DNA from: a plasmid
Direction: 5' to 3' (one strand)
DNA: 11,304 bases
Assembly (NCBI RefSeq): GCF_057098645.1
Contig: NZ_JBXSPU010000004.1
Position 1 is the first letter of the stretch, and every line of letters begins with the position of its first letter. A model generated the notes under the pieces. The model searched no databases, was not told where the DNA came from, and was given only the letters and a program-made list of their open reading frames with translations. This document shows, piece after piece, positions 342 to 11,303 of the stretch. Both the position numbers and the translations under genes were made by a program.

Positions 342-536
342 TTATGGTTCCGTGCCGTACTGCGCTTCAAAGTGTGTCTGTATGCTGTTACCGAGTTCTT
401 CCGCCAGTTCGTGCAGTCGTTCGCACATGGCGGCCTGTTCGTCTGCATCCAGTGCATCCAGTTTTTCGAGCAACGTCAGGCTCTGGCTTTTGATAAATCG
501 CGCCATGTTGAGCGCGGTCTGCTGCTGTTTGTTCAC
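342..536 (-). CDS. rop: Rop/Rom, RNA I-RNA II pairing modulator
   Basis: 64-aa ORF MNKQQQTALNMARFIKSQSLTLLEKLDALDADEQA... aligns along its length with the 63-aa ColE1/pMB1 Rop (MTKQEKTALNMARFIRSQTLTLLEKLNELDADEQA...); it sits at the expected place beside bom. Confidence 0.9.
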   Translation of the reverse strand: MNKQQQTALNMARFIKSQSLTLLEKLDALDADEQAAMCERLHELAEELGNSIQTHFEAQYGTEP

Positions 537-1386: not shown

Positions 1387-1489
1387 GCACCTCGACGTAT
1401 CAAAATGCACCAGCATTTTGTATACAGTCGGTCATGTGCCTCCAGGATTTACCATCAAAAACGCCCCTGTAGTTAATCCTGAATCAAGG

Positions 1490-1584
1490 TATAACTAAGA
1501 TATAATTAGCGTATAACTAAGGCATAACTAAAGTATAACTAACTTGGTGTGCATATAATTAACATATAACTAATGTATAACTAA
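1490..1584 (+). repeat. Array of about eight direct repeats of TATAACTAA phased at 11 bp (iteron-like)
   Basis: Copies start at 1490, 1501 (tataattag), 1512, 1523 (cataactaa), 1534, 1554 (tataattaa), 1565 and 1576; one degenerate slot near 1545. Confidence 0.7.
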
Positions 1585-1770
1585 CGGTTCACCAACGGAT
1601 CGCATGTAGTAGACGCTACATAAAAAATCCTGAAATGGAGGATTCGTCATAAAGAGATTCTTTTTTTTAGCGTTCTGATGCAGAACAGGGCAAACACCGC
1701 AAAAATGATGAAAAACTGATTAACCATACTGTCTGTATTCTGAATGAATTACGAAGCATAGCGATAAATT

Positions 1771-1797
1771 AAAAAATCCCCCTGGATTACAGGGGGA
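1771..1797 (-). terminator. Intrinsic-terminator-like hairpin plus U-tract (minus strand)
   Basis: Plus strand aaaaaa-tccccctg-gatta-caggggga: 8-bp perfect stem; on the minus strand the hairpin is followed by TTTTTT. Confidence 0.4.
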
Positions 1798-1904
1798 AGC
1801 TATCAGAGTTTGAGTAATGAGAAATATTATTTTGGAGAGAGCATCACAAATGCGCTCTTTTCCAATCTGCCGTAACCATCGGCAAAAGACAATCAGGACA
1901 GGCG

Positions 1905-1931
1905 AAAAAATCCCCCTATATGGCAAGGGGG
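1905..1931 (-). terminator. Intrinsic-terminator-like hairpin plus U-tract (minus strand)
   Basis: Plus strand aaaaaa-t-ccccct-atatggca-aggggg: 6-bp GC stem; minus-strand T6 follows. Confidence 0.4.
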
Positions 1932-2028
1932 TGTCAATGAGGACATGGCAATTGTGAGTTTTGTGTGTGTTTTATGTGTTGCAGTTTGCAACGTCAGAAA
2001 TTTGCCGTAGTTCGTCATGAGAGACAAC

Positions 2029-2070
2029 AAAAAAATCCCCCGTGACTGGTGGAGGCCAGGGCAAGGGGGG
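2029..2070 (-). terminator. Intrinsic-terminator-like imperfect hairpin plus U-tract (minus strand)
   Basis: Plus strand aaaaaaa-tcccccgtgactgg...ccagggcaagggggg; CCCCC/GGGGG and CTGG/CCAG arms; minus-strand T7 follows. Confidence 0.3.
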
Positions 2071-2279
2071 TAGCAAATGCCTGAATAATTTTCGTAGTTT
2101 TGATATACCCATCGTTGCAACCGCAACGGGATGAATTTGCCGCAGTTGTGCGCGAAAAACAATCCTGATTCCGGGACAGGATGTGTAATCGTATAACCGC
2201 GCACGCACGGCTATGCGATTACCACCTGGTCAGGGCTTTGCCCCGACACCCTCGACACCGTTCCCGCGATACGATAGAA

Positions 2280-2483
2280 GGGGTTCTAAGCCGGAAACCC
2301 AGAAAATTCCGTCACCAAAGCTAGTAATCGACAGATTTGCATGACGTTGAATAGGTGACGGGTTATGTGACGATATTTGGTGTCGAAATCGTTGTTTCAG
2401 TGACAGTCACTCAATCGATCGTTTGTGTGACACTCCCGTAAAAACTTGTCGCAGAAAAATCCAGGTTTCCGGCCGGGAACCCC
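2280..2483. mobile_element. 204-bp miniature element with Tn3-family-like terminal inverted repeats and 5-bp target duplication (TIME-like, non-autonomous)
   Basis: Left end GGGGTTCTAAGCCGGAAACCCAGAAAATTCCG; right end read inward GGGGTTCCCGGCCGGAAACCTGGATTTTTCTGCG. Both start GGGGTTC like the transposon IRs at 7516 and 11303. Flanked by identical TAGAA at 2275-2279 and 2484-2488. No ORF inside. Confidence 0.6.
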
Positions 2484-2571
2484 TAGAACATCAGGGCGCG
2501 TTTCCGGGTAAACGCATGTTAATGACCGGGAATTCATTGATCAGGGACCGGAGACGCGCTACAAAACTCCT

Positions 2572-2713
2572 GCGCGTTTCTGGCATCAACTGACCATGGG
2601 GATGGTTTGGCAGTAGCAGCAAGCGCCAGAAACGCGCTCAAAACGCCTCTGGCGGCAAAACCATTGCCCGATGCAAAAAAGTGCGTTACAAAGCCTCTGA
2701 GCGCGTTTCTGGC
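2572..2713. repeat. Nested inverted copies of GCGCGTTTCTGGC forming long-range hairpins, followed by a T-tract
   Basis: gcgcgtttctggc at 2572-2584 and 2701-2713; its reverse complement at 2624-2636. The pair 2624-2639 / 2698-2713 is a perfect 16-bp inverted repeat. T6 at 2716-2721. The 15-mer CTGAGCGCGTTTCTG recurs at 3466-3480 inside cer. Confidence 0.5.
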
Positions 2714-3097
2714 GTCTTTTTTGTTGCTGTGTCGCTATACTCGTTGTCAGATTCGCGCTCAATCATCACTGATTAATCTGCGCTTATCCTTCGACTGATC
2801 ACGCTGGTATTTTTTGACAACCGGTTCCCATGAAAACGCCAGACGGGAACCGTCATCCGCACCCTCTGACATGCTGGGGATTAAAAATCCCTGTGCCGCA
2901 CAGCCGGCGTTGCATAAAATTCCGCTCTGCGATGAGTATTGTTTAATCAAAAATCCCCTCGTTTTCTCCAGAAAAACGCGAGTCTGTTCTCATGCCCCGG
3001 ATGCCCACACCCCACGCAAAACCAACTTTTTTCTGATTTGCTTTTTAAATCATGTTGTTATGGTTTGAAAAATATATTTTCTTATTCAGATTTATAC

Positions 3098-3270
3098 AAA
3101 AGCGAGTCGTCGGCGACTACTGGATGATTCGGCAACGAGTCGTCGGTGATTTATCGATGACTCAACACACTGTCTCCCTGGTGTTCAGAAAAAGCGAGTC
3201 GCCAGAGAGTCGCGAGGAAAAATACTGGATGACTCGCTGATGGCTCCCGGGGTGAATCGCTCACGACTCG
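3098..3270. repeat. Cluster of GAGTCG / CGACTC-containing direct and inverted repeats
   Basis: (G/A)CGAGTCGTCGG at 3101-3113 and 3134-3146; ACTGGATGA(T/C)TCG at 3118-3130 and 3224-3236; GAGTCGCC and GAGTCGCG at 3196-3213; CGACTCG at 3264-3270. Confidence 0.5.
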
Positions 3271-3299
3271 TCTGTAACTACTGTCTGATTTCTTCTCAT

Positions 3300-3516
3300 C
3301 AGGGCTGAAAACGTCCGAAAATGCGCCTTATGGGAATCAGGCGCGCCCAAACCGATCGCCATTCAGTTTCATGCATAGTCATGCAGTGCCATGAAAACAA
3401 TCCTGACGTATTTTTCCGGTTTACCCGGGGGGAAAACATCTCTTTTTGCGGTTTTTGCGTCAGAATCGCGCTGAGCGCGTTTCTGCGGTGCGTACAATTA
3501 AGGGATTATGGTAAAT
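3300..3516 (+). other. cer-type multimer resolution site (accessory sequences plus XerC/XerD core)
   Basis: Core at 3487-3516 reads GGTGCGTACAA-TTAAGGGA-TTATGGTAAAT, which is the ColE1 cer XerC arm, 8-bp central region and XerD arm as I recall them. About 190 bp of upstream accessory sequence includes an ARG-box-like segment near 3360-3385. Left boundary approximate. Confidence 0.8.
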
Positions 3517-3524
3517 GTCTCCCT

Positions 3525-3947
3525 TTACTGCCTGCCCTCGTAGCCATCAAGATAAACCGCAGAAATCGTGTCAGCCAGCAGCTTCATTTTTTCCGGTGAT
3601 GGCATATCACCGTTCGTGTATTTTCTGCCAGCAAAGGTTGTTGTGCTCCGGAGTGAGTGAAAAAATTTTTCTGAGTGGAATTCTTTTACACGTTGCTGTG
3701 CCGTTTCTGCTGATACTCCGGCTGCTTTGTCTTTCATCCCCATATCCCGGAACTGCTGAAAGAACGGGTGCATCATACGTATGGTGTCTGCTTTCTGGGT
3801 GTGGAAGTTAGGATCAAATCCATCATCTGAAGCATAAACATAATGCCGGGTATGTCGTTCCAGGCTGGTCTTTGGTGTGCATCCTGTAAGAGCTATTGTT
3901 GCTGTTATCAGAGGTATCAGAAGCAGCCTGACAGCGGCAGATCTCAT
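3525..3947 (-). CDS. Putative lipoprotein (140 aa), function unknown
   Basis: N-terminus MRSAAVRLLLIPLITATIALTGC has a signal peptide and lipobox L-T-G-C; AGGAG Shine-Dalgarno 7 nt upstream on the minus strand. No family recognised. Confidence 0.6.
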   Translation of the reverse strand: MRSAAVRLLLIPLITATIALTGCTPKTSLERHTRHYVYASDDGFDPNFHTQKADTIRMMHPFFQQFRDMGMKDKAAGVSAETAQQRVKEFHSEKFFHSLRSTTTFAGRKYTNGDMPSPEKMKLLADTISAVYLDGYEGRQ

Positions 3948-4068
3948 AAAAATCTCCTTGCGTTTTTAATCTTGATACTCAGGGAGTTATATCTCCGAAG
4001 AGTATCTCTTATCATACGTCGGTTTACTCCCAATGTGATTTGATGGTCAATGAGTCAGGAATAATCCC

Positions 4069-4347
4069 GTGAAAAAATGTGTGCCAGTCCTGCTTTTTAG
4101 TGTTCTTTCTGCTTCGGTTGCCAGTCATGCGGACAGCAATGTTTTTCAACAAAAGGCCGAGAAGACAAAAAACGGCATTGTTGCGGATGTTAATGCCAGA
4201 CAGAAAATGTTCAGTAACAGACTGAAGATACAACTTCAGATCGATGAGTTGAGAGCAGAGCTGGCTGGCACCAGAGATGCCCAAAAAAGAGAGGATTTGC
4301 GTAAAAAACTGGAGTCTCTGGAGCGGCAAAAGAAATCCTTACGCTGA
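4069..4347 (+). CDS. Putative secreted/periplasmic coiled-coil protein (92 aa, GTG start)
   Basis: MKKCVPVLLFSVLSASVASHA has a signal peptide with an AxA-like cleavage motif (SHA-D); the mature part is highly charged with heptad-like K/E/L/R pattern. AGGAA 7 nt upstream of the GTG. Confidence 0.5.
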   Translation: MKKCVPVLLFSVLSASVASHADSNVFQQKAEKTKNGIVADVNARQKMFSNRLKIQLQIDELRAELAGTRDAQKREDLRKKLESLERQKKSLR

Positions 4348-4656
4348 TGGGGGCGTATTTTCCCCGGTTTCTTCCATAACCTTTTTACCGTTCAGATATT
4401 TACGGGCGAGGCGAATGCGTCTTGCCTGGTATACCGCCGAGTAAGCCTGGGTGGGATTCACACCGTTACTGATTTCACTGACCACATGACGCTGATCAGC
4501 CAGTGTCAGCGTGTAAACCTGTTTCTGGATGAGGTCACGGGCTTTGTCATGCTCATATCCGGCAGCAACCAGGGTGTCGAGAAGTCGCTTGTCTGTTTTG
4601 TTCAGTTTATGGCGGGGAGATTTGCTCACATCGTTCTCCGTTTTTTCATGATCCAA
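4339..4656 (-). CDS. Hypothetical small basic protein (105 aa) with a possible helix-turn-helix
   Basis: ORF divergent from the colicin promoter; the segment VVSEISNGVNPTQAYSAVYQARRIR looks like an HTH (turn at NG, then a recognition helix). No family recognised. Confidence 0.45.
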   Translation of the reverse strand: MDHEKTENDVSKSPRHKLNKTDKRLLDTLVAAGYEHDKARDLIQKQVYTLTLADQRHVVSEISNGVNPTQAYSAVYQARRIRLARKYLNGKKVMEETGENTPPSA

Positions 4657-4761
4657 CAGTTTTATATCTCATCCTGATTTGCTCCGGTGTTCTGTTTCGA
4701 CGTTCTCAATGTCTGCCTCCTTGTAGTGTGATCTTTATTGCAAAAATGAAAATCCATGTTC

Positions 4762-4825
4762 TTGACATGGGCAATGCTGAGTAGTAGGTTTTCACTGTAC
4801 ATAAAACCAGTGGTTATATGTACAG
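4762..4825 (+). promoter_or_regulatory. SOS-regulated colicin promoter with two overlapping LexA boxes
   Basis: -35 TTGACA at 4762-4767; overlapping LexA boxes CTGTACATAAAACCAG (4795-4810) and its partner tggttatatgtacag (4811-4825), each CTG-N10-CAG, in the classic colicin arrangement. Confidence 0.8.
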
Positions 4826-4873
4826 TATATTGTTTTTAATTTATTGTTTTAATTATCAAAGAGGAATTTCTTT

Positions 4874-6346
4874 ATGGATAAAGTCACTGATAATTCTCCA
4901 GATGTGGAGAGCACAGAATCTACTGAGGGGTCATTCCCAACCGTTGGGGTTGATACTGGCGATACGATTACAGCGACGCTTGCAACTGGAACTGAAAATG
5001 TTGGTGGAGGCGGTGGAGCATTTGGTGGGGCCAGTGAAAGTTCTGCTGCGATACATGCAACCGCTAAATGGTCTACCGCGCAGTTGAAAAAACATCAGGC
5101 TGAACAGGCTGCCCGTGCTGCTGCGGCTGAGGCAGCATTGGCAAAAGCGAAATCTCAGCGTGATGCCCTGACTCAACGTCTCAAAGATATTGTTAATGAC
5201 GCTTTACGTGCTAATGCCGCCCGTAGTCCATCAGTAACTGACCTTGCTCATGCCAATAATATGGCAATGCAGGCAGAGGCTGAGCGTTTGCGCCTTGCGA
5301 AGGCAGAGCAAAAAGCCCGTGAAGAAGCTGAAGCAGCAGAAAAAGCGCTCCGGGAAGCAGAACGCCAACGTGATGAGATTGCCCGCCAACAGGCTGAAAC
5401 CGAGCATTTGTTAGCTATGGCTGAGGCTGCTGAGGCTGAAAAAAATCGACAGGATTCTCTTGATGAAGAGCATCGGGCTGTGGAAGTGGCGGAGAAGAAT
5501 CTGGCTGAGGCTAAAGCTGAACTGGCGAAGGCTGAAAGCGATGTACAGAGTAAGCAAGCGATTGTTTCCAGAGTTGCAGGGGAGCTTGAAAACGCTCAAA
5601 AAAGTGTTGATGTGAAGGTTACCGGATTTCCTGGATGGCGTGATGTTCAGAAAAAACTAGAGAGACAATTGCAGGATAAGAAGAATGAATATTCGTCAGT
5701 GACAAATGCTCTTAATTCTGCTGTTAGCATTAGAGATGCTAAAAAAACAGAAGTTCAGAATGCTGAGACAAAATTAAAAGAAGCTCAGGATGCGCTTGAG
5801 AAGAGTCAGGTAAAAGATTCTGTTGATACTATGGTTGGGTTTTATCAATATATAACCGAACAATATGGAGAAAAATACGCAAGAATTGCTCAGGATTTAG
5901 CGGAAAAGTCTAAAGGAAAGAAAATTAAAGGTGTTGATGAAGCTTTAGCTGCATTTGAACAGTATAAAAATGTACTGGATAAGAAATTCAGTAAGGTTGA
6001 TAGGGATGCTATTTTTAATTCTTTAGAGTCTGTTAATTATGATGAGTTATCTAAGAATTTAACGAAGATATCAAAGTCGCTTAAAATCACTAGTCGAGTA
6101 TCTTTTCTATATGATGTTGGTTCTGATTTTAAAAATGCAATAGAAACTGGTAACTGGCGTCCTTTATTTGTCACGCTGGAGAAAAGTGCGGTAGATGTAG
6201 GTGTTGCAAAAATTGTGGCATTAATGTTTAGTTTTATTGTCGGCGTGCCTCTTGGTTTCTGGGGGATTGCTATTATCACAGGTATTGTTTCTTCTTACAT
6301 AGGGGATGATGAGTTGAACAAGCTTAATGAATTGCTAGGTATTTAA
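4874..6346 (+). CDS. cta: Pore-forming colicin of the E1 family, colicin 10-like (490 aa)
   Basis: Gly-rich N-terminal region, then [20 protein letters not shown]...[13 protein letters not shown]...LAHANN...ERLRLAKAE matching colicin E1 as I recall it. C-terminal channel domain ends [21 protein letters not shown]...LGI (E1: GIWGIAIVTGILCSYI...EVLGI). The length and the TonB-box-like DTITATL at residues 30-36 fit colicin 10; the symbol is tentative. Confidence 0.9.
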
Positions 6347-6662: not shown

Positions 6663-6794
6663 ATGAAAATAATAATTTTTCTAATTACAATATTATTCTT
6701 GTCAGGATGTCAAGCAAACTATATTCGTGATGTACAAGGAGGAACCGTTGCGCCATCTTCGTCTTCTGAACTGACGGGGATCGCGGTTCAGTAG
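6663..6794 (+). CDS. ctl: Colicin lysis (bacteriocin release) lipoprotein, 43 aa
   Basis: Not in the ORF track. Translates to [43 protein letters not shown] with lipobox LSGC; the mature part is essentially identical to the ColE1 Kil mature sequence as I recall it. GGAGAGGG Shine-Dalgarno upstream. Confidence 0.85.
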
Positions 6795-6802
6795 AAAAGA
6801 TC

Positions 6803-6828
6803 AAAGGATCTCTTGAGATCCTTTTTTT
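6803..6828 (+). terminator. Intrinsic terminator after the lysis gene, overlapping the RNA II promoter -35
   Basis: aaaggatct-cttg-agatccttt: 9-bp perfect stem followed by TTTTTTT; same arrangement as in pMB1/ColE1. Confidence 0.7.
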
Positions 6829-6841
6829 CTGCGCGTAATCT
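6813..6841 (+). promoter_or_regulatory. RNA II (replication primer) promoter
   Basis: TTGAGA at 6813-6818 and TAATCT at 6836-6841 with 17-bp spacing, positionally equivalent to the pBR322 RNA II promoter. Confidence 0.55.
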
Positions 6842-6848
6842 GCTGCCT

Positions 6849-6957
6849 GTAAACGAAAAAACCGCCTGGGGAGGCGGTTTAGTCAAAGGTTAAGTCAGTT
6901 GGGGAACAGCTTAACCGGGTAACTGGCTTCAGCAGAGCGCAGATACCAAAAACTTGT
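6849..6957 (-). ncRNA. RNA I antisense copy-number regulator
   Basis: Antisense to the 5' ~110 nt of RNA II; its 5' end corresponds to the complement of cagataccaaaaacttgt (pBR322 RNA I begins ACAGTATTTGGTATCTG); three-stem-loop region. Ends approximate. Confidence 0.65.
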
Positions 6958-7478
6958 CCTTCTAGTGTAGTCAAAATCAGGCTGATACTTCAAGAACTCT
7001 GTTACTAACTTATAAATCTCGCTCTGCTAACCCGGTTACCAATGGCTGCTGCCAGTGGCGTTAAGTCGTGTCCTTTCCGGGTTGGACCCAAGAGAACAGT
7101 TACCGGAGAAGGCGCAGCAGTCGGGCTGAACGGGGGGTTCCTGCATACAGCCCGGCCCGGAGCGAACTGCCTAAGTCGCCCCGAGATACCAGAAGACGTG
7201 AGCTATGAGAAAGCGCCACGTGTCCCGCAAGGGAGAAAGGCGGAAAAGGTATCCGGCAATCGATATGGCGGGAACGTGGGGGCGCAGGAGGGAGCGATTC
7301 ACCGGAAACGGTGATGATCTTTAAGCCACGTCGGGTTTCGCCACCGCTGGCGGATTTCATGGTTGAGTCGGAAGACTCCCACAGATGCACCTAAAAAGTG
7401 TCTGTTTTGTGAAGTCCGTCAGGGGGGCGGAGCCTATGGAAAAAGCGCCTCCGGCGCGGCCTTTCGGGGTTTTCGTTT
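6849..7478 (+). ncRNA. RNA II primer precursor through the replication origin of a ColE1-type replicon
   Basis: Collinear with pBR322 RNA II/ori as recalled (ggtaactggcttcagcagagcgcagatacc..., gctatgagaaagcgccacg..., gtcaggggggcggagcctatggaaaaa..., ctcacatgttctttcc), but with many substitutions and an extra segment near 7330-7410. Ends approximate. Confidence 0.7.
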
Positions 7479-7515
7479 CTTGCTCACATGTTCTTTCCGG
7501 CGTTATCCCCTGATT

Positions 7516-7553
7516 GGGGTTCCGTGGGAATTTCTGCGATAACACCCGCTAAG
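7516..7553 (+). repeat. Left 38-bp terminal inverted repeat (IRL)
   Basis: GGGGTTCCGTGGGAATTTCTGCGATAACACCCGCTAAG. Confidence 0.85.
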
Positions 7554-7699
7554 CGATTCCTCCCTGACGGAAATCACTTGTTTTCCGTCAGGTCCTGCAG
7601 TTGAAGAAAATTGAATCCATAAATCTGTGATTTTTTGCGTGACAAACCCTGTCGGAATGAGAAACTGTACGGAAACTTCAATTTTAAGGTTTGTCGTAC
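7554..7699 (+). promoter_or_regulatory. res site (resolvase binding subsites) and tnpR promoter region
   Basis: 30-bp palindrome cctgacggaaa-tcacttgt-tttccgtcagg at 7563-7592, plus further TGTCGGAA / TGTACGGAA / TGTCGTACA half-sites at 7648-7700, between IRL and tnpR. Confidence 0.55.
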
Positions 7700-8323
7700 A
7701 TGTTGATTGGTTATATGCGGGTATCAAGCAATGATGAACGTCAGTCAGTTTCTTTGCAGCGTGATGCGTTGATTGCTGCTGGAGTGGATCCCCGGCATTT
7801 ACATCAGGATCATGCTTCAGGTGCTCGTGATAATCGCCCGGGACTTAAGTCCTGTCTCGCTGAACTTCGCGAAGGTGATGTACTGATAGTCTGGAAACTG
7901 GATCGACTTGGTCGTTCACTCTCACATTTGCTCCGAATTATTGAAGACCTGAAAATTCGTGGTATTGCTTTCCGATCATTGACTGAATCTATTGATACAA
8001 CAACGCCACACGGCTCGTTCCTCTTTAACCTTTTTGGCACGCTCGCGGAGTACGAAAGAACACTTATCACAGAACGCGTTAATGCTGGTCTGGCTGCTGC
8101 TCTCCGGCGGGGGAGAAAAGGCGGAAGGCCACCGGCGATAGATGCTGAAAAGGTTGATCAAATCCTCGCAGCTCTGGAAGGAGGTGCCAGTAAAGCGTCA
8201 GTATGTCGCGCATTCAGTGTGCCACGCTCAACGCTCACCGATACTCTACGACGAATTGGCTGGGCCGGACCTGGGGGGCGTAATCTGACAACGGATCAGA
8301 GCAATGTCATTTCTCGACTCTAA
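7700..8323 (+). CDS. tnpR: Serine recombinase (resolvase), Hin/Gin invertase-like
   Basis: MLIGYMRVSSNDERQ...RPGLK...GDVLIVWKLDRLGRS...GIAFRSLTESIDTTTP...GRKGGRPPA parallels Gin (MLIGYVRVSTNDQ...GDTLVVWKLDRLGRSM...GINFRSLTDSIDTSSP...GRIGGRPPK) as recalled. I place the start at ATG 7700 (AAGG about 10 nt upstream); the ORF track starts at an upstream TTG, 7691. Confidence 0.85.
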   Translation: MLIGYMRVSSNDERQSVSLQRDALIAAGVDPRHLHQDHASGARDNRPGLKSCLAELREGDVLIVWKLDRLGRSLSHLLRIIEDLKIRGIAFRSLTESIDTTTPHGSFLFNLFGTLAEYERTLITERVNAGLAAALRRGRKGGRPPAIDAEKVDQILAALEGGASKASVCRAFSVPRSTLTDTLRRIGWAGPGGRNLTTDQSNVISRL

Positions 8324-11270
8324 ATCGTACGATACGCTTTTTGGATTACCTGAACTTTATGAGGATGCACTTCCCCGGTTTTCGCTCTCCTGCGAGGATA
8401 TTGCATTCGCCAGAACTCATCGTCGATCTCATAACCGTCTGGGTTTTGCCATTCAGCTTGCACTTGTCCGTGATCTCGGTCGTACACTGCGTGCAGGAGA
8501 GATTCCCCCGGAGGCTGTTATCACCGTTGTTGCGGAACAACTGGATATTGACCCTGCTGTTTTTACACTTTACGCACAACGTGAGGAAACCCGCCGGGAA
8601 CATGCCCGCGAAATAGTTTCGGCTTTGGAGCTTCGTTCCGTCCGGAGTAGCGATTACAGAATGCTCATTATCGCGGCTACACGCGAAGCAGCAACCACCG
8701 AAAAAGGACTGCCGATCACCAGAGCAGTTATCAATAAGCTGAAGGACCAGAAGTTACTTGCCCCTGCTCCGGCACAACTCATCCGTCTGGCAATGGCGGG
8801 CCGGGCGGCTGCCCGTCGCCTTTCTTATCGGGAACTCATCAGGGATCTGAAACCTTCATCCATTAGCGCTCTCGAGCAGTTGCTTACCGAACGAGTCGGA
8901 GAAAAGAGCATTTTAGGCTGGATAGCTGAAGCGCCGGAAGGCGTGAAACTCAAGAATCTTAAGGGGTTAATTGCCAGGCTGGAGGTATTACGAACAGCGG
9001 CAATCTCCGATGAGCAACGTAAACGGATTCATGTAAACCGTTACGGTATTATTGCCCGGGATTCTCGCGTTTTACATGCGCGTGAAATACAACGAATGGC
9101 ATCCGAACGCTGTCATGCCACGCTGGTAGCCTTTGTTATTGAAAAGCAGGCAGCAATTACAGATCTGGCAATTGATATGTTCTGCAAATTGATTGGCAGC
9201 ACGAGGCGCAGAGCAGAGATAAGCCAGAAAGAGCGTCGTCTGAAAGCCGCTGAAGTACTTGAAGTCGTAGCTCAGGATCATATTAAGTTGGGACGGGCTC
9301 TCCTGGCAGCACGTGACGGTAATACTGATATTGAATCTGTAATAACAGCATCACTCGGCTGGGAAGGTTTGATTGCCAGTATGGAGGCTGCAGCTTCGGT
9401 GGCATCTTCCCATCACTGTTCTGAACTGGATGAACTTATCGGACGACAAAAATCATTACGTAAGCTTGGACGACTCATTTTCAGCGCTTTTTCTTTCAGA
9501 GCTTTTCGCCCGGATGATAGCGTTTTGTTGGCGATTGGGTATTTGCAGGCGTTCTATCATGGCCGAAAATTACCCAAACAAATTCCGCTCGATTTTATGT
9601 CCCATAAATGGCGACGTCGTGTCATCCATGGAGAAAATACCGATCTGCAGGCGTGGGAAGTCGCCGTATTCGTTCATTTGCGGGAACGCCTGAAAACAGG
9701 TGACATATGGGTTGATGGTAGTCGGGCCTGGCGTAGTTTTGAGGACTACCTTCTTCCTCACCATGTTTTCGGGCAGATGCGGGCAGAATCCCGGCTGGGA
9801 CTTGCCATTCCGGACAACTTTGCTGAATGGCGGGCTGAGCGAACCACCACACTCAACGCAAAACTGAAAGCGCTGGCAAAAGCTGCTTCGGAGAATGCCA
9901 TACCCGATGCAGAACTTTCCAGCAGAGGGTTGTCTGTGTCTCCGATTCGCGAAGAAGAGAGCGACAAAATTAAGGCTCTCAGCCGTAAACTCTACATGCT
10001 GGTACCACGCATCAGAATTACCAGTTTGCTGGCAGAAGTTCATAGCTGGACCAGTTTTCTTGATTGTTTCACCCATTATCGCACCGGGGAACAGGCGGAA
10101 GATGAAGCTGCACTTATGGCTGCGATCCTTGCCGATGCGACGAATGCGGGAGCAGAACGGATGGCGCAGAGTTCCCGGGGTGTCACCATTCACCAGATGA
10201 TGGTAATGATGGATCGTCATTTACGCACTGAAACCTATGCGTCTGCCACATCAGTTCTGGTCGATGCGCAACAGGAACATCCTTTTGCTGCTATATGGGG
10301 GGATGGGCATGTGTCATCCTCGGACGGGCAGTTTTTTCCTGCGGGTGGACGAGGAGAAGCCAGCCTCGAATATAACGCCAAATACGGCAAACGACCTGGC
10401 GCGTCGATTTATGGTTTTTTATCGAACCGTTTTGCATCCTTTTTTTCCAGAATGATTCAGGCCTCTGAAAGCGAGGCTCCCTACGTACTTGACGGCTTAC
10501 TTCATAACGAAAGTTCTGTGGTAATTCATGAGCATGCCACCGATACAGCCGGTGCGACTGAAACAACATTTTCAATGTTTCACTCTTTTGGTTACAGACT
10601 CATACCCCGTATTCGCAACCTCGGCAGTCGCAGGTTGTACGTTATTTCCCCCTCAGAGGAATATAAACCACTTGATGCCCTGATCGCCGGAAAGGCCAAA
10701 ATGGAAGTAATAGAACAGCACTGGGATGAAGTTCTGCGGCTTAAGGCCTCGATCGGCGCTGGTCTGGTACCACCATCGGTAATACTGAAAAAGCTGGCAG
10801 CATCTCCGAGACAAAACAGGCTCAATCTGGCCCTGCGTGAAATGGGACGTATTGAACGCTCAATTTTTATCTGTGACTGGTTGCTTGACACTCGGTTACG
10901 TCGCAGATCACACGCAATCCTCAACAAAGGCGAAAGCCGCCATGCACTTGCCCGCGCTATTTTTCTTCACCAACTGGGCGAATTCCGGAACAGGGCTGCC
11001 GAGACAATGGCTCACAGGGCATCGGGCCTCAACCTTGTTGTTAATGCAATAATTCTGTGGAACACGGTCTATCTCAGTCGGGCTGTTGATTACATTCGCA
11101 GCCAGGGGATCATTATACCGGAAGAGCTCTTGTCCAGTGTATCACCACTACCATGGGGTCATATCTCGCTCACTGGAGATTACCTGTGGAACGAAATTGA
11201 CCATCCCCTTGAACGATACAGGCCACTTCGTACTAATCGCTTCAATCCAAAGAACTTCACTTTTCCTTAG
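8304..11270 (+). CDS. tnpA: Tn3-family DDE transposase (988 aa)
   Basis: HNRLGFAIQLALVRDLG, NKGESRHALARAIFLHQLGEFRNR and NAIILWNTVYLSRAVDYIRSQG mirror Tn3 TnpA motifs (HNRLGIALQIGCVRFLG, NRGESRHAVARAICHGQKGEIRKR, NAVVLWNTIYMQAALDHLRAQG). Overlaps the tnpR 3' end by 20 nt. Confidence 0.93.
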   Translation: MSFLDSKSYDTLFGLPELYEDALPRFSLSCEDIAFARTHRRSHNRLGFAIQLALVRDLGRTLRAGEIPPEAVITVVAEQLDIDPAVFTLYAQREETRREHAREIVSALELRSVRSSDYRMLIIAATREAATTEKGLPITRAVINKLKDQKLLAPAPAQLIRLAMAGRAAARRLSYRELIRDLKPSSISALEQLLTERVGEKSILGWIAEAPEGVKLKNLKGLIARLEVLRTAAISDEQRKRIHVNRYGIIARDSRVLHAREIQRMASERCHATLVAFVIEKQAAITDLAIDMFCKLIGSTRRRAEISQKERRLKAAEVLEVVAQDHIKLGRALLAARDGNTDIESVITASLGWEGLIASMEAAASVASSHHCSELDELIGRQKSLRKLGRLIFSAFSFRAFRPDDSVLLAIGYLQAFYHGRKLPKQIPLDFMSHKWRRRVIHGENTDLQAWEVAVFVHLRERLKTGDIWVDGSRAWRSFEDYLLPHHVFGQMRAESRLGLAIPDNFAEWRAERTTTLNAKLKALAKAASENAIPDAELSSRGLSVSPIREEESDKIKALSRKLYMLVPRIRITSLLAEVHSWTSFLDCFTHYRTGEQAEDEAALMAAILADATNAGAERMAQSSRGVTIHQMMVMMDRHLRTETYASATSVLVDAQQEHPFAAIWGDGHVSSSDGQFFPAGGRGEASLEYNAKYGKRPGASIYGFLSNRFASFFSRMIQASESEAPYVLDGLLHNESSVVIHEHATDTAGATETTFSMFHSFGYRLIPRIRNLGSRRLYVISPSEEYKPLDALIAGKAKMEVIEQHWDEVLRLKASIGAGLVPPSVILKKLAASPRQNRLNLALREMGRIERSIFICDWLLDTRLRRRSHAILNKGESRHALARAIFLHQLGEFRNRAAETMAHRASGLNLVVNAIILWNTVYLSRAVDYIRSQGIIIPEELLSSVSPLPWGHISLTGDYLWNEIDHPLERYRPLRTNRFNPKNFTFP

Positions 11271-11303
11271 CGTGTGTTATCGCAGAAATGCCCACGGAAC
11301 CCC
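11266..11303 (-). repeat. Right 38-bp terminal inverted repeat (IRR)
   Basis: Reverse complement reads GGGGTTCCGTGGGCATTTCTGCGATAACACACGCTAAG; differs from IRL at positions 14 and 31. Confidence 0.85.

Follow-up and report, generated by a model that had tools for sequence, protein, structure and literature searches.

The interval at positions 6813–7444 of the window, by which we mean the whole 11,304-bp stretch of DNA analysed here, is very probably the control region and origin of a ColE1-family replicon that is primed by RNA II, regulated by RNA I and assisted by Rop, and that belongs to a CloDF13-like branch, carries a 41-nt apical insertion in its last RNA II hairpin and consists of recombined modules. 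The origin is an ordinary one of the RNA-primed colicin-plasmid type and represents the long-known CloDF13 sub-type, not the pBR322 sub-type, which accounts both for its different control-RNA hairpins and for its 41 extra bases. A scan of the window against Rfam at E≤1 returned RNAI (RF00106) as the sole match, at 6954–6853 on the minus strand, with a score of 74.3 bits (gathering threshold 47; E=1.7e-12) and covering positions 1–102 of the 102-position model. The origin region matched 3,880 plasmids in PLSDB, and either the origin or RNA I was matched at all in about 3,900–4,000. In view of the Rfam E value and these PLSDB matches, the homology is not due to chance.

The window is a complete small colicin plasmid. 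Pfam searches identified its cargo as a pore-forming colicin of 490 amino acids, a Cki-type immunity gene, a lysis gene and rop, and a Tn3-family transposon is also present; an NCBIfam scan of the cargo proteins was uninformative for the colicin, Rop and lysis proteins, all three of which were identified by Pfam. The lysis gene ends at 6791 and is directly followed by the interval under study, which is the same place that the ColE1-type origin occupies in ColE1 and pColK-K235. The nearest deposited record, NZ_CP062882.1 from an E. coli O157:H16 of pig faeces, is essentially the same plasmid and has been typed as ColRNAI_rep_cluster_1857; no Rep protein is found among its eight annotated CDS.

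The transposon has its own history in this backbone. In NZ_CP062882.1 the 3,788-bp element interrupts the colicin gene and is flanked by a target duplication (AAAAA); the window has an uninterrupted colicin ORF, and its transposon lies inverted at 7516–11303 with a TGATT duplication, 71 bp beyond the RNA-DNA switch and between the origin and a DnaA box (6–14). The origin–transposon junction of the window was absent from the 5,426 RefSeq complete E. coli genomes searched, and two matches that seemed to reach upstream of the inverted repeat proved to be chance similarity at different insertion sites. Related plasmids carry the same transposon at still other positions. The two arrangements have the look of genuine insertions that occurred independently in one backbone.

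The landmarks of a ColE1-type origin could be placed along the interval by homology (Table 1). A strict consensus promoter scan of 6760–7560 flagged no promoters, neither that of RNA II nor that of RNA I, so the promoter calls rest on alignment to ColE1: we take the RNA II hexamers to be the counterparts of the mapped ColE1 promoter, and the RNA I promoter is likewise presumed homologous to that of ColE1. Within the latter, CTTCAAGAAC and AGTGTAG are kept across 57 distinct ColE1-family sequences. The exact origin motif is common to ColE1, pMB1, the p15A type and 90 genome contigs. RNA II length was counted from +1 to the end of the origin A-run, with positions calibrated on ColE1, and by this measure it comes to 596 nt in the window, 595 nt in CloDF13 and 557 nt in ColE1, for which the published length is 555 nt. 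The penultimate RNA II hairpin has a stem that is compensated relative to ColE1.

Table 1. Features of the replicon; coordinates refer to the window, and transcripts and folds are predictions.
Feature	Coordinates	Strand	Basis or remark
rop (Rom), stabiliser of the RNA I–RNA II kissing complex	345–536	-	Pfam PF01815 Rop, E=1.2e-33, full length; Rop annotation in NZ_CP062882.1
Putative RNA II promoter: -35 TTGAGA (6813–6818), 18-nt spacer, -10 TAATCT (6837–6842)	6813–6842	+	Invariant against ColE1 and pColK-K235 in alignment
RNA II primer precursor, from +1 G6849 (GTAAACGAAAAAACC) to the RNA-DNA switch in the A-run 7440–7444; about 594–596 nt	6849–7444	+	Calibrated on ColE1
Antisense RNA I, about 108 nt; 5' end ACAAGUUUUUGG at 6957	6850–6957	-	Rfam RF00106 RNAI
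Stem-loop 3 of RNA I, first stem-loop of RNA II: AAACCGCC-TGGGGA-GGCGGTTT	6859–6880	+	
Stem-loop 2: GGTTAAGTCAGTTGGGGAACAGCTTAACC	6888–6916	+	
Stem-loop 1: GGTAACTGGCTTCAGCAGAGCGCAGATACC	6918–6947	+	
Putative RNA I promoter: -35 TTGAAG (6993–6988), 17-nt spacer, -10 CTACAC (6970–6965)	6965–6993	-	Homology to ColE1
Upstream G6 run, equivalent of the ColE1 -265 G-run	7132–7137	+	CTGAACGGGGGGTT kept in 123 origins examined
Penultimate RNA II hairpin TCACCG-GAAA-CGGTGA (in ColE1 CCAGG-GGGAAACG-CCTGG)	7299–7314	+	Alignments and hairpin scan
Pre-origin RNA II hairpin; basal stem 7333–7360 with 7409–7435	7333–7435	+	Predicted fold; basal stem as in ColE1
Extra segment: hairpins A and B, giving a three-way junction	7361–7405	+	Fold and alignment; also in CloDF13
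Hairpin A, GAGUC-GGAA-GACUC	7361–7380	+	Predicted fold
Hairpin B, ACAGAUGC-ACCUAAAAA-GUGUCUGU; 8 bp, A-rich 9-nt loop	7381–7405	+	Predicted fold
-20 G6 run within the origin motif GTCAGGGGGGCGGAGCCTATGGAAAAA (7418–7444)	7422–7427	+	Exact motif match
A-run at the RNA-DNA switch (oriV)	7440–7444	+	Homology to the ColE1 origin motif

The ColE1 mechanism combines priming by RNA II with RNase H, Pol I and control by RNA I (review, PMC5043065). On this model, RNA II of the window would be transcribed from 6849 over about 595 nt to the origin motif, where it would enter a persistent hybrid and, after RNase H cleavage in the A-run, prime DNA polymerase I. RNA I, running from 6957 to 6850, would bind the first ~108 nt of RNA II by three loop–loop contacts, and primer maturation would then be blocked; its binding would divert the folding of RNA II, and Rop would be expected to stabilise the complex. 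The transcript ends, the priming chemistry, the dependence on RNase H and Pol I and the switch point we infer by homology, the position of the switch being one that we presume from work on ColE1 and pBR322. Masukata and Tomizawa are said to have proposed in 1990 that an upstream G-run of RNA II contacts the template C-run at -20. If the run at 7132–7137 plays this role, as we assume from their model, it would contact the complement of 7422–7427. The three-way junction described below would form just before the polymerase reaches the -20 G-run. In seven of eight loci of the CloDF13/Klebsiella lineage, GGGGAG at the -265 run goes together with GGAGGG at the -20 run; no inference is drawn from this co-variation because it concerns a single lineage and because, in the register in which RNA and DNA would pair, the changes do not clearly compensate one another.

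The original prediction that about 40 extra nucleotides precede GTCAGGGGGG was borne out, the distance from TTTCGCCA to GTCAGGGGGG being 74 nt in the window versus 33 nt in the ColE1, pMB1 and p15A types, and MAFFT alignment left ColE1 and pColK-K235 with a gap of 41 nt opposite positions 7364–7404 or so of the window. In ColE1 the last ~75 nt before the switch form one long hairpin, with the -20 G-run in its descending arm and an apex made of a 7-bp stem and a 9-nt loop. In the window the G-run is paired in the basal stem with CCACC upstream, and the 41 nt lie as an insertion in the apical loop of this last RNA II hairpin, by which a simple hairpin would become a three-way junction.

A discrete insertion relative to ColE1 might be expected of a mobile-element remnant lodged in a ColE1-type origin. 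This origin for the segment is scarcely credible, and it was rejected on the finding that each of the 72 copies from genomes and metagenomes occupies one and the same position within a ColE1-type origin; moreover, the segment has neither flanking direct repeats nor terminal inverted repeats, and it is internally paired and built into the host hairpin.

The predicted fold of the pre-origin hairpin (7333–7435) has a minimum free energy of -59.9 kcal/mol (z -7.1), and the antisense strand of the region folds far worse, at -36.6 kcal/mol. Because of this poor antisense fold and of many invariant G.U pairs, the modelled structure is assigned to RNA II in its sense orientation. Folded as DNA, the sense strand gives a comparable but weak structure (-23.7 kcal/mol, z -3.9), and in ColE1 the displaced strand serves for helicase loading (PMC5043065), so that the segment could be thought to act at the DNA level, whether by binding a protein or, on the displaced non-template strand, as an ssi signal for primosome assembly. 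We regard such an action as very unlikely: in DNA the many G.U pairs would become weak G.T pairs, the complementary strand could not form them at all, the segment precedes the switch point and hence falls outside the region expected to be displaced, and the consensus scan found no promoter-like site in it.

To what extent the junction is conserved as a structure was judged from variants collected in PLSDB, species-representative genomes and metagenomes, which gave 21 distinct sequences. Standard pairs occupy 98.6% of the pair cells in these variants, versus 38–50% when the partners are slid by one to three columns, and the covariation score is 0.115 versus 0.02–0.035 in the slid controls. Both partners have changed in four of the pairs: 16-97 (CG/UA), 21-92 (GU/UG/AU/CG), 23-90 (GC/GU/AU/UA) and 39-46 (CG/UA). 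RNAalifold gives the same three-way junction as the consensus, and the divergent Klebsiella versions, which are ~80% identical here, individually fold to the same junction. The compensatory support lies mostly in the basal stem; hairpin A contributes a single pair and hairpin B none, and since the sequences are closely related (mean column identity 92%) we consider the covariation evidence to be moderate. The metagenome search pattern held TTCATGGTTGAG and CTCCCACAGATGCAC, which are parts of hairpins A and B, fixed, and the invariance of these columns is therefore uninformative. Of the unpaired positions that the pattern left free, AAAAG in the loop of hairpin B and the greater part of the U-rich junction are invariant in the 21 variants. 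Neither the open-access PubMed Central papers nor the bioRxiv preprints searched yielded a structural description of the three-way junction, and Rfam holds no family for this pre-origin region.

Besides the short (33 nt) and long (74 nt) classes, contigs of Tatumella, Pantoea, Edwardsiella and Cedecea have a medium class of 43–44 nt that folds as a longer simple hairpin. Given these three classes, the hairpin apex is a general site of length variation. An alignment of Klebsiella ColE1-type replication regions described a variable sector at nt 565–609 (Ramirez et al., PMC6764390), which may be this same pre-origin apex. Conceivably, the tip of this hairpin tolerates extra length and the 41-nt segment is a neutral expansion there, without any role itself and folded only to spare the essential basal stem; we hold this to be possible if somewhat doubtful. 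Such an expansion would fit an apex that is the most length-variable spot of the origin, each class being a stem extension, as well as the variable sector of that alignment and the abundance in nature of both short-form and long-form replicons. It fits less well with the invariance of the AAAAG loop and of most of the U-rich junction, which the search pattern did not impose, or with the 84–100% identity that the segment retains across plasmids of Klebsiella, Escherichia, Salmonella and Citrobacter. With the basal stem unchanged, the most likely role of the segment is that of a structural variant of the RNA II 3' domain, one that has to preserve, and may tune, folding before the R-loop. We infer accordingly that the junction is a variant of the last folding step of RNA II, either tuning that step or merely tolerated by it.

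The long form is widespread. A 72-nt query over the extra segment matched 1,073 PLSDB plasmids, of which 822 were from Klebsiella and 181 from Escherichia, with others from Citrobacter, Salmonella and Enterobacter; roughly one in four of the ColE1-like plasmids in PLSDB thus has it, the common Klebsiella ColRNAI plasmids among them. Compared in 50-nt bins, positions 7060–7460 of the window are 96–100% identical to several E. coli and Salmonella plasmids of 5.6–7.7 kb, and in three of four such plasmids (L098, L099 and L163) the RNA I region is just 34–74% identical. Small ColE1-like plasmids of E. coli and Salmonella (5.3–7.7 kb), such as NZ_CP075857 (L098), NZ_CP046541 (L163) and NZ_CP017722 (L164), share the 3' two-thirds of RNA II, junction included, at 96–100% identity. 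NZ_CP075857, NZ_CP046541 and NZ_AP027261 (L099) have unrelated RNA I with 26–51 differences in 108 nt, and the Salmonella plasmid NZ_CP017722 has a close one with 9. The converse is seen in the ColK, ColN and pSS046_spB plasmids, where the RNA I region is 92–98% identical to that of the window, the insertion bin is 12–16% identical and the 3' domain is ColE1-like. Across the origins collected, at least 15 combinations of stem-loops 3 and 1 accompany the long form, with ColE1's own RNA I (L114, L123 and L135) among them, and the combination present in the window is found with long and short forms alike. By sequence comparison the replicon is a mosaic: across plasmids, the module of RNA I and that of the 3' part of the primer are combined independently of each other, from which we conclude that the divergence of RNA I and the extra segment are independent modules shuffled by recombination.

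RNA I is predicted to fold into three stem-loops, and a terminator-like site at 6880–6859 corresponds to its terminator hairpin followed by a U-tract. The comparators were ColE1, pMB1, a p15A type (L040, which we take to be p15A), CloDF13 and the ColK and ColN types. Over the 108 nt of the RNA I region, 41 positions of the window differ from pMB1, 42 from ColE1, 32 from the p15A type and 16 from CloDF13, in agreement with the prediction of a ColE1-type control region that has diverged from pMB1 and pBR322 at many positions. The string cited as an example of this divergence, ccgcctggggaggcgg, is present at 6862–6877, where it aligns with CCACCGCTACCAGCGGTGG of pMB1-type origins. The pBR322 version cited with it is accurate, since CCACCGCTACCAGCGGTGG recurs identically as vector contamination in seven unrelated genome assemblies, all from among the genomes fetched with the origin motif.

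Taken one by one, the stem-loops differ in their affinities. Stem-loop 3 shows none of 22 possible differences from pColK-K235, ColN-6812, pSS046_spB and Sal7665 (a Salmonella plasmid), two compensated stem differences with the same loop in CloDF13, and 10–11 differences from pMB1/ColE1. Stem-loop 2 is one difference in 29 away from CloDF13, pSS046_spB and the Klebsiella ColRNAI plasmids, versus 18 in 29 from ColE1/pMB1; the lineage-specific A6908, which is T in CloDF13 and pSS046_spB, gives an A.A mismatch in the upper stem. Stem-loop 1 matches ColE1 and pMB1 at 30 of 30 positions and has five differences from CloDF13 and four from pColK-K235. As judged from these sequences, RNA I is a recombinant of established specificities and has no novel loop. 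By its RNA I the window falls outside the ColE1/pMB1 and p15A groups and lacks the three-loop specificity of CloDF13.

These results bear on the proposal that the plasmid represents a distinct compatibility type by virtue of novel RNA I loops and would coexist with pBR322-type and p15A-type plasmids. The comparison behind it was with pBR322 alone. That the loops matter for incompatibility was a sound premise, and several observations would favour the proposal, namely the 41 and 32 differences from pMB1 and the p15A type, stem-loops 2 and 3 that are wholly unlike those of pMB1, the rarity of the exact 113-nt RNA I allele, which three of 72,556 PLSDB plasmids and a few contigs of human-gut metagenomes contain, and the acceptance of the ColE1/pMB1, p15A, CloDF13 and RSF1030 origins as separate incompatibility groups (PMC9458437). 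However, comparing the folded RNA I with the known groups, as had been suggested as a check, returned for the most part the loops of established groups. Loops 3 and 2 recur in CloDF13, ColK and ColN, stem-loop 1 recurs in ColE1/pMB1 together with a near-identical 5' tail, and ColN-6812 and pSS046_spB have the same three loops; compatibility, moreover, cannot be predicted from loop sequence differences alone (PMC9458437). Since loops 3 and 2 and stem-loop 1 all have known counterparts, the RNA I of the window is not a new specificity; a distinct type, as it was put forward, is unsupported, and we consider it doubtful.

Coexistence with pMB1/pBR322-type and p15A-type vectors is plausible from the sequence. 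The two loops in common may allow cross-talk with CloDF13-type replicons, and the one common stem-loop together with the similar 5' tail may allow a weaker cross-talk with ColE1/pMB1. A further reading in two parts is possible but unlikely. On the one hand, the conserved junction just before the -20 G-run may be a functional RNA II module of the CloDF13-like branch that tunes folding during transcription, the R-loop or RNase H action and thereby copy number or host adaptation; on the other, the RNA I, as a natural hybrid, could make the plasmid partially incompatible with both the CloDF13 and the ColE1/pMB1 vector groups.

The window thus holds a natural allele, already deposited and typed, and a mosaic member of a thoroughly known replicon family and a known sub-branch, and its scientific weight is small, being that of one more allele of a replicon that ranks among the best studied. 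For practical purposes, orthogonality to CDF-origin vectors should not be assumed, since RNA I has two of its three loops in common with theirs, and orthogonality to pMB1-origin vectors is uncertain, stem-loop 1 being identical; this caution applies to the plasmid and its relatives when they reside together with laboratory vectors. The covariation-supported junction, situated where RNA II switches to the persistent hybrid, fills a modest descriptive gap and is not a surprise. What triggers that switch was still speculative according to a 2016 review (PMC5043065), and a comparison of the short, medium and long apices would offer a cheap natural handle on the trigger.

Among the named systems, ColE1 and pMB1 (pBR322, pUC) are like the window in having both promoters (putative in the window), the three stem-loops, the upstream G-run, the origin motif and Rop; unlike the window, they have a simple pre-origin hairpin and an RNA II that is ~39 nt shorter, and overall identity is 75–78%. 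The nearest RNA I alleles, with 7–8 differences in 108 nt, are those of ColN-6812 (a 6.8-kb ColN-type plasmid, NZ_CP027259) and pSS046_spB (NC_009346): their stem-loops 3 and 1 are identical to those of the window, stem-loop 2 is 1–2 nt off, all three loops are the same and the other differences lie in the linkers and the 5' tail. In pColK-K235 (NC_006881) stem-loop 3 is identical and stem-loop 2 near-identical. These three plasmids carry colicin K/10-type cargo related to that of the window, but they have a short, ColE1-like pre-origin hairpin that lacks the insertion, and identity over the whole origin is ~78–80%.

CloDF13 (NC_002119), the source of the 'CDF' origin of pCDF vectors, is a more fitting comparator for this origin than pBR322 and is collinear with the window over the whole of RNA II at 82% identity. 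Stuitje et al. reportedly published on the CloDF13 origin in 1979–81, and Selzer et al. are said to have compared the ColE1, p15A, RSF1030 and CloDF13 origins in 1983; the extra segment has presumably been on record ever since the CloDF13 origin sequence appeared. The two plasmids differ at five of the 30 positions of stem-loop 1 and in the G-runs, which are GGAGGG at -20 and GGGGAG at the upstream run in CloDF13 and G6 at both in the window; rop is present in the window plasmid, and none is listed for CloDF13 in the PLSDB table, which is incomplete. They share the loops of stem-loops 3 and 2, the type of penultimate hairpin, the 41-nt pre-origin insertion with its three-way junction and the MOB-suite cluster, ColRNAI_rep_cluster_1857. 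Because CloDF13 has the same segment and an RNA II of 595 nt against 596 nt, the extra segment of the window is an element of CloDF13-type architecture.

In the origins of three human-gut metagenome contigs (L114, L123 and L135), stem-loops 3 and 1 of ColE1's own RNA I are joined to a long pre-origin junction of the CloDF13 type, which is direct evidence of recombination between the RNA I control module and the primer module at the 3' side. A third, "medium" apex class of the pre-origin hairpin, with 43–44 nt between the same anchors and a fold corresponding to a longer simple hairpin, was found in L016, L020, L026, L063, L070 and L071, which represent Tatumella, Edwardsiella, Cedecea, Pantoea and one MAG. 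In L158, a 512-kb metagenome contig (Ga0308156_1000039, approximately positions 87–170), the long-form hairpin stops after ...TTTATGT and is followed by unrelated sequence; the contig may be chimeric, or the origin may have been integrated into a chromosome or interrupted by an insertion.

The G-run upstream of the pre-origin hairpin, equivalent to the ColE1 run at -265, reads GGGGAG in seven of the eight loci that carry GGAGGG at -20, all belonging to a single lineage that includes CloDF13 (L167) and the Klebsiella-type loci L094, L104, L120–L122 and L160. At column 16 of the hairpin alignment, the base that pairs with the A of the -20 GGAGGG is U in place of C. Within stem-loop 2, the common CloDF13/pSS046_spB sequence has T where the window has A6908, and this single substitution creates an A·A mismatch (U·U in RNA I) adjoining the GGGG loop, resulting in a larger effective loop. 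This base is confined to the small clade of the window, comprising three PLSDB plasmids and the gut metagenome contigs L110, L126, L128 and L130.

Exact pUC/pMB1- and p15A-type origins were also observed in assemblies from Streptomyces, Paracoccus, Pseudoalteromonas, Nitrospira and Hymenobacter, among others (genome contigs L004, L010, L011, L014, L032, L034, L040, L041 and others); in these public genomes they are evidently cloning-vector contamination.

Features of the window and of the deposited plasmid record NZ_CP062882.1 (L001)
Feature	Position	Remarks
DnaA box	6-14	TGTGGATAA (reverse complement TTATCCACA)
Pore-forming colicin ORF	4874-6343	490 aa; Pfam Colicin domain; colicin 10/5/K-like length
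Tn3-family transposon	7516-11303	3,788 bp
tnpR	7691-8320	
tnpA	8304-11267	
Transposon IRs		38 bp; GGGGTTCCGTGGG(A/C)ATTTCTGCGATAACAC...
Transposon junctions	7511-7515 and 11304 plus 1-4	
Region of L001 compared	1468-5258	

A consensus DnaA box usually lies immediately downstream of ColE1-type origins. In the window, the transposon stands between the origin (7440–7444) and this box, and the plasmid sequence implies that such a separation is tolerated. The junction between the origin and the IR was present in none of the 5,426 RefSeq E. coli genomes searched. Comparison with NZ_CP062882.1 revealed the same plasmid with the transposon elsewhere and in reversed orientation, proper 5-bp target duplications flanking the element at both sites: (i) in the window it lies 71 bp beyond the origin switch, with the duplication TGATT, and the colicin ORF is unbroken, whereas (ii) in NZ_CP062882.1 the colicin gene is split by the element, whose target duplication there is AAAAA.
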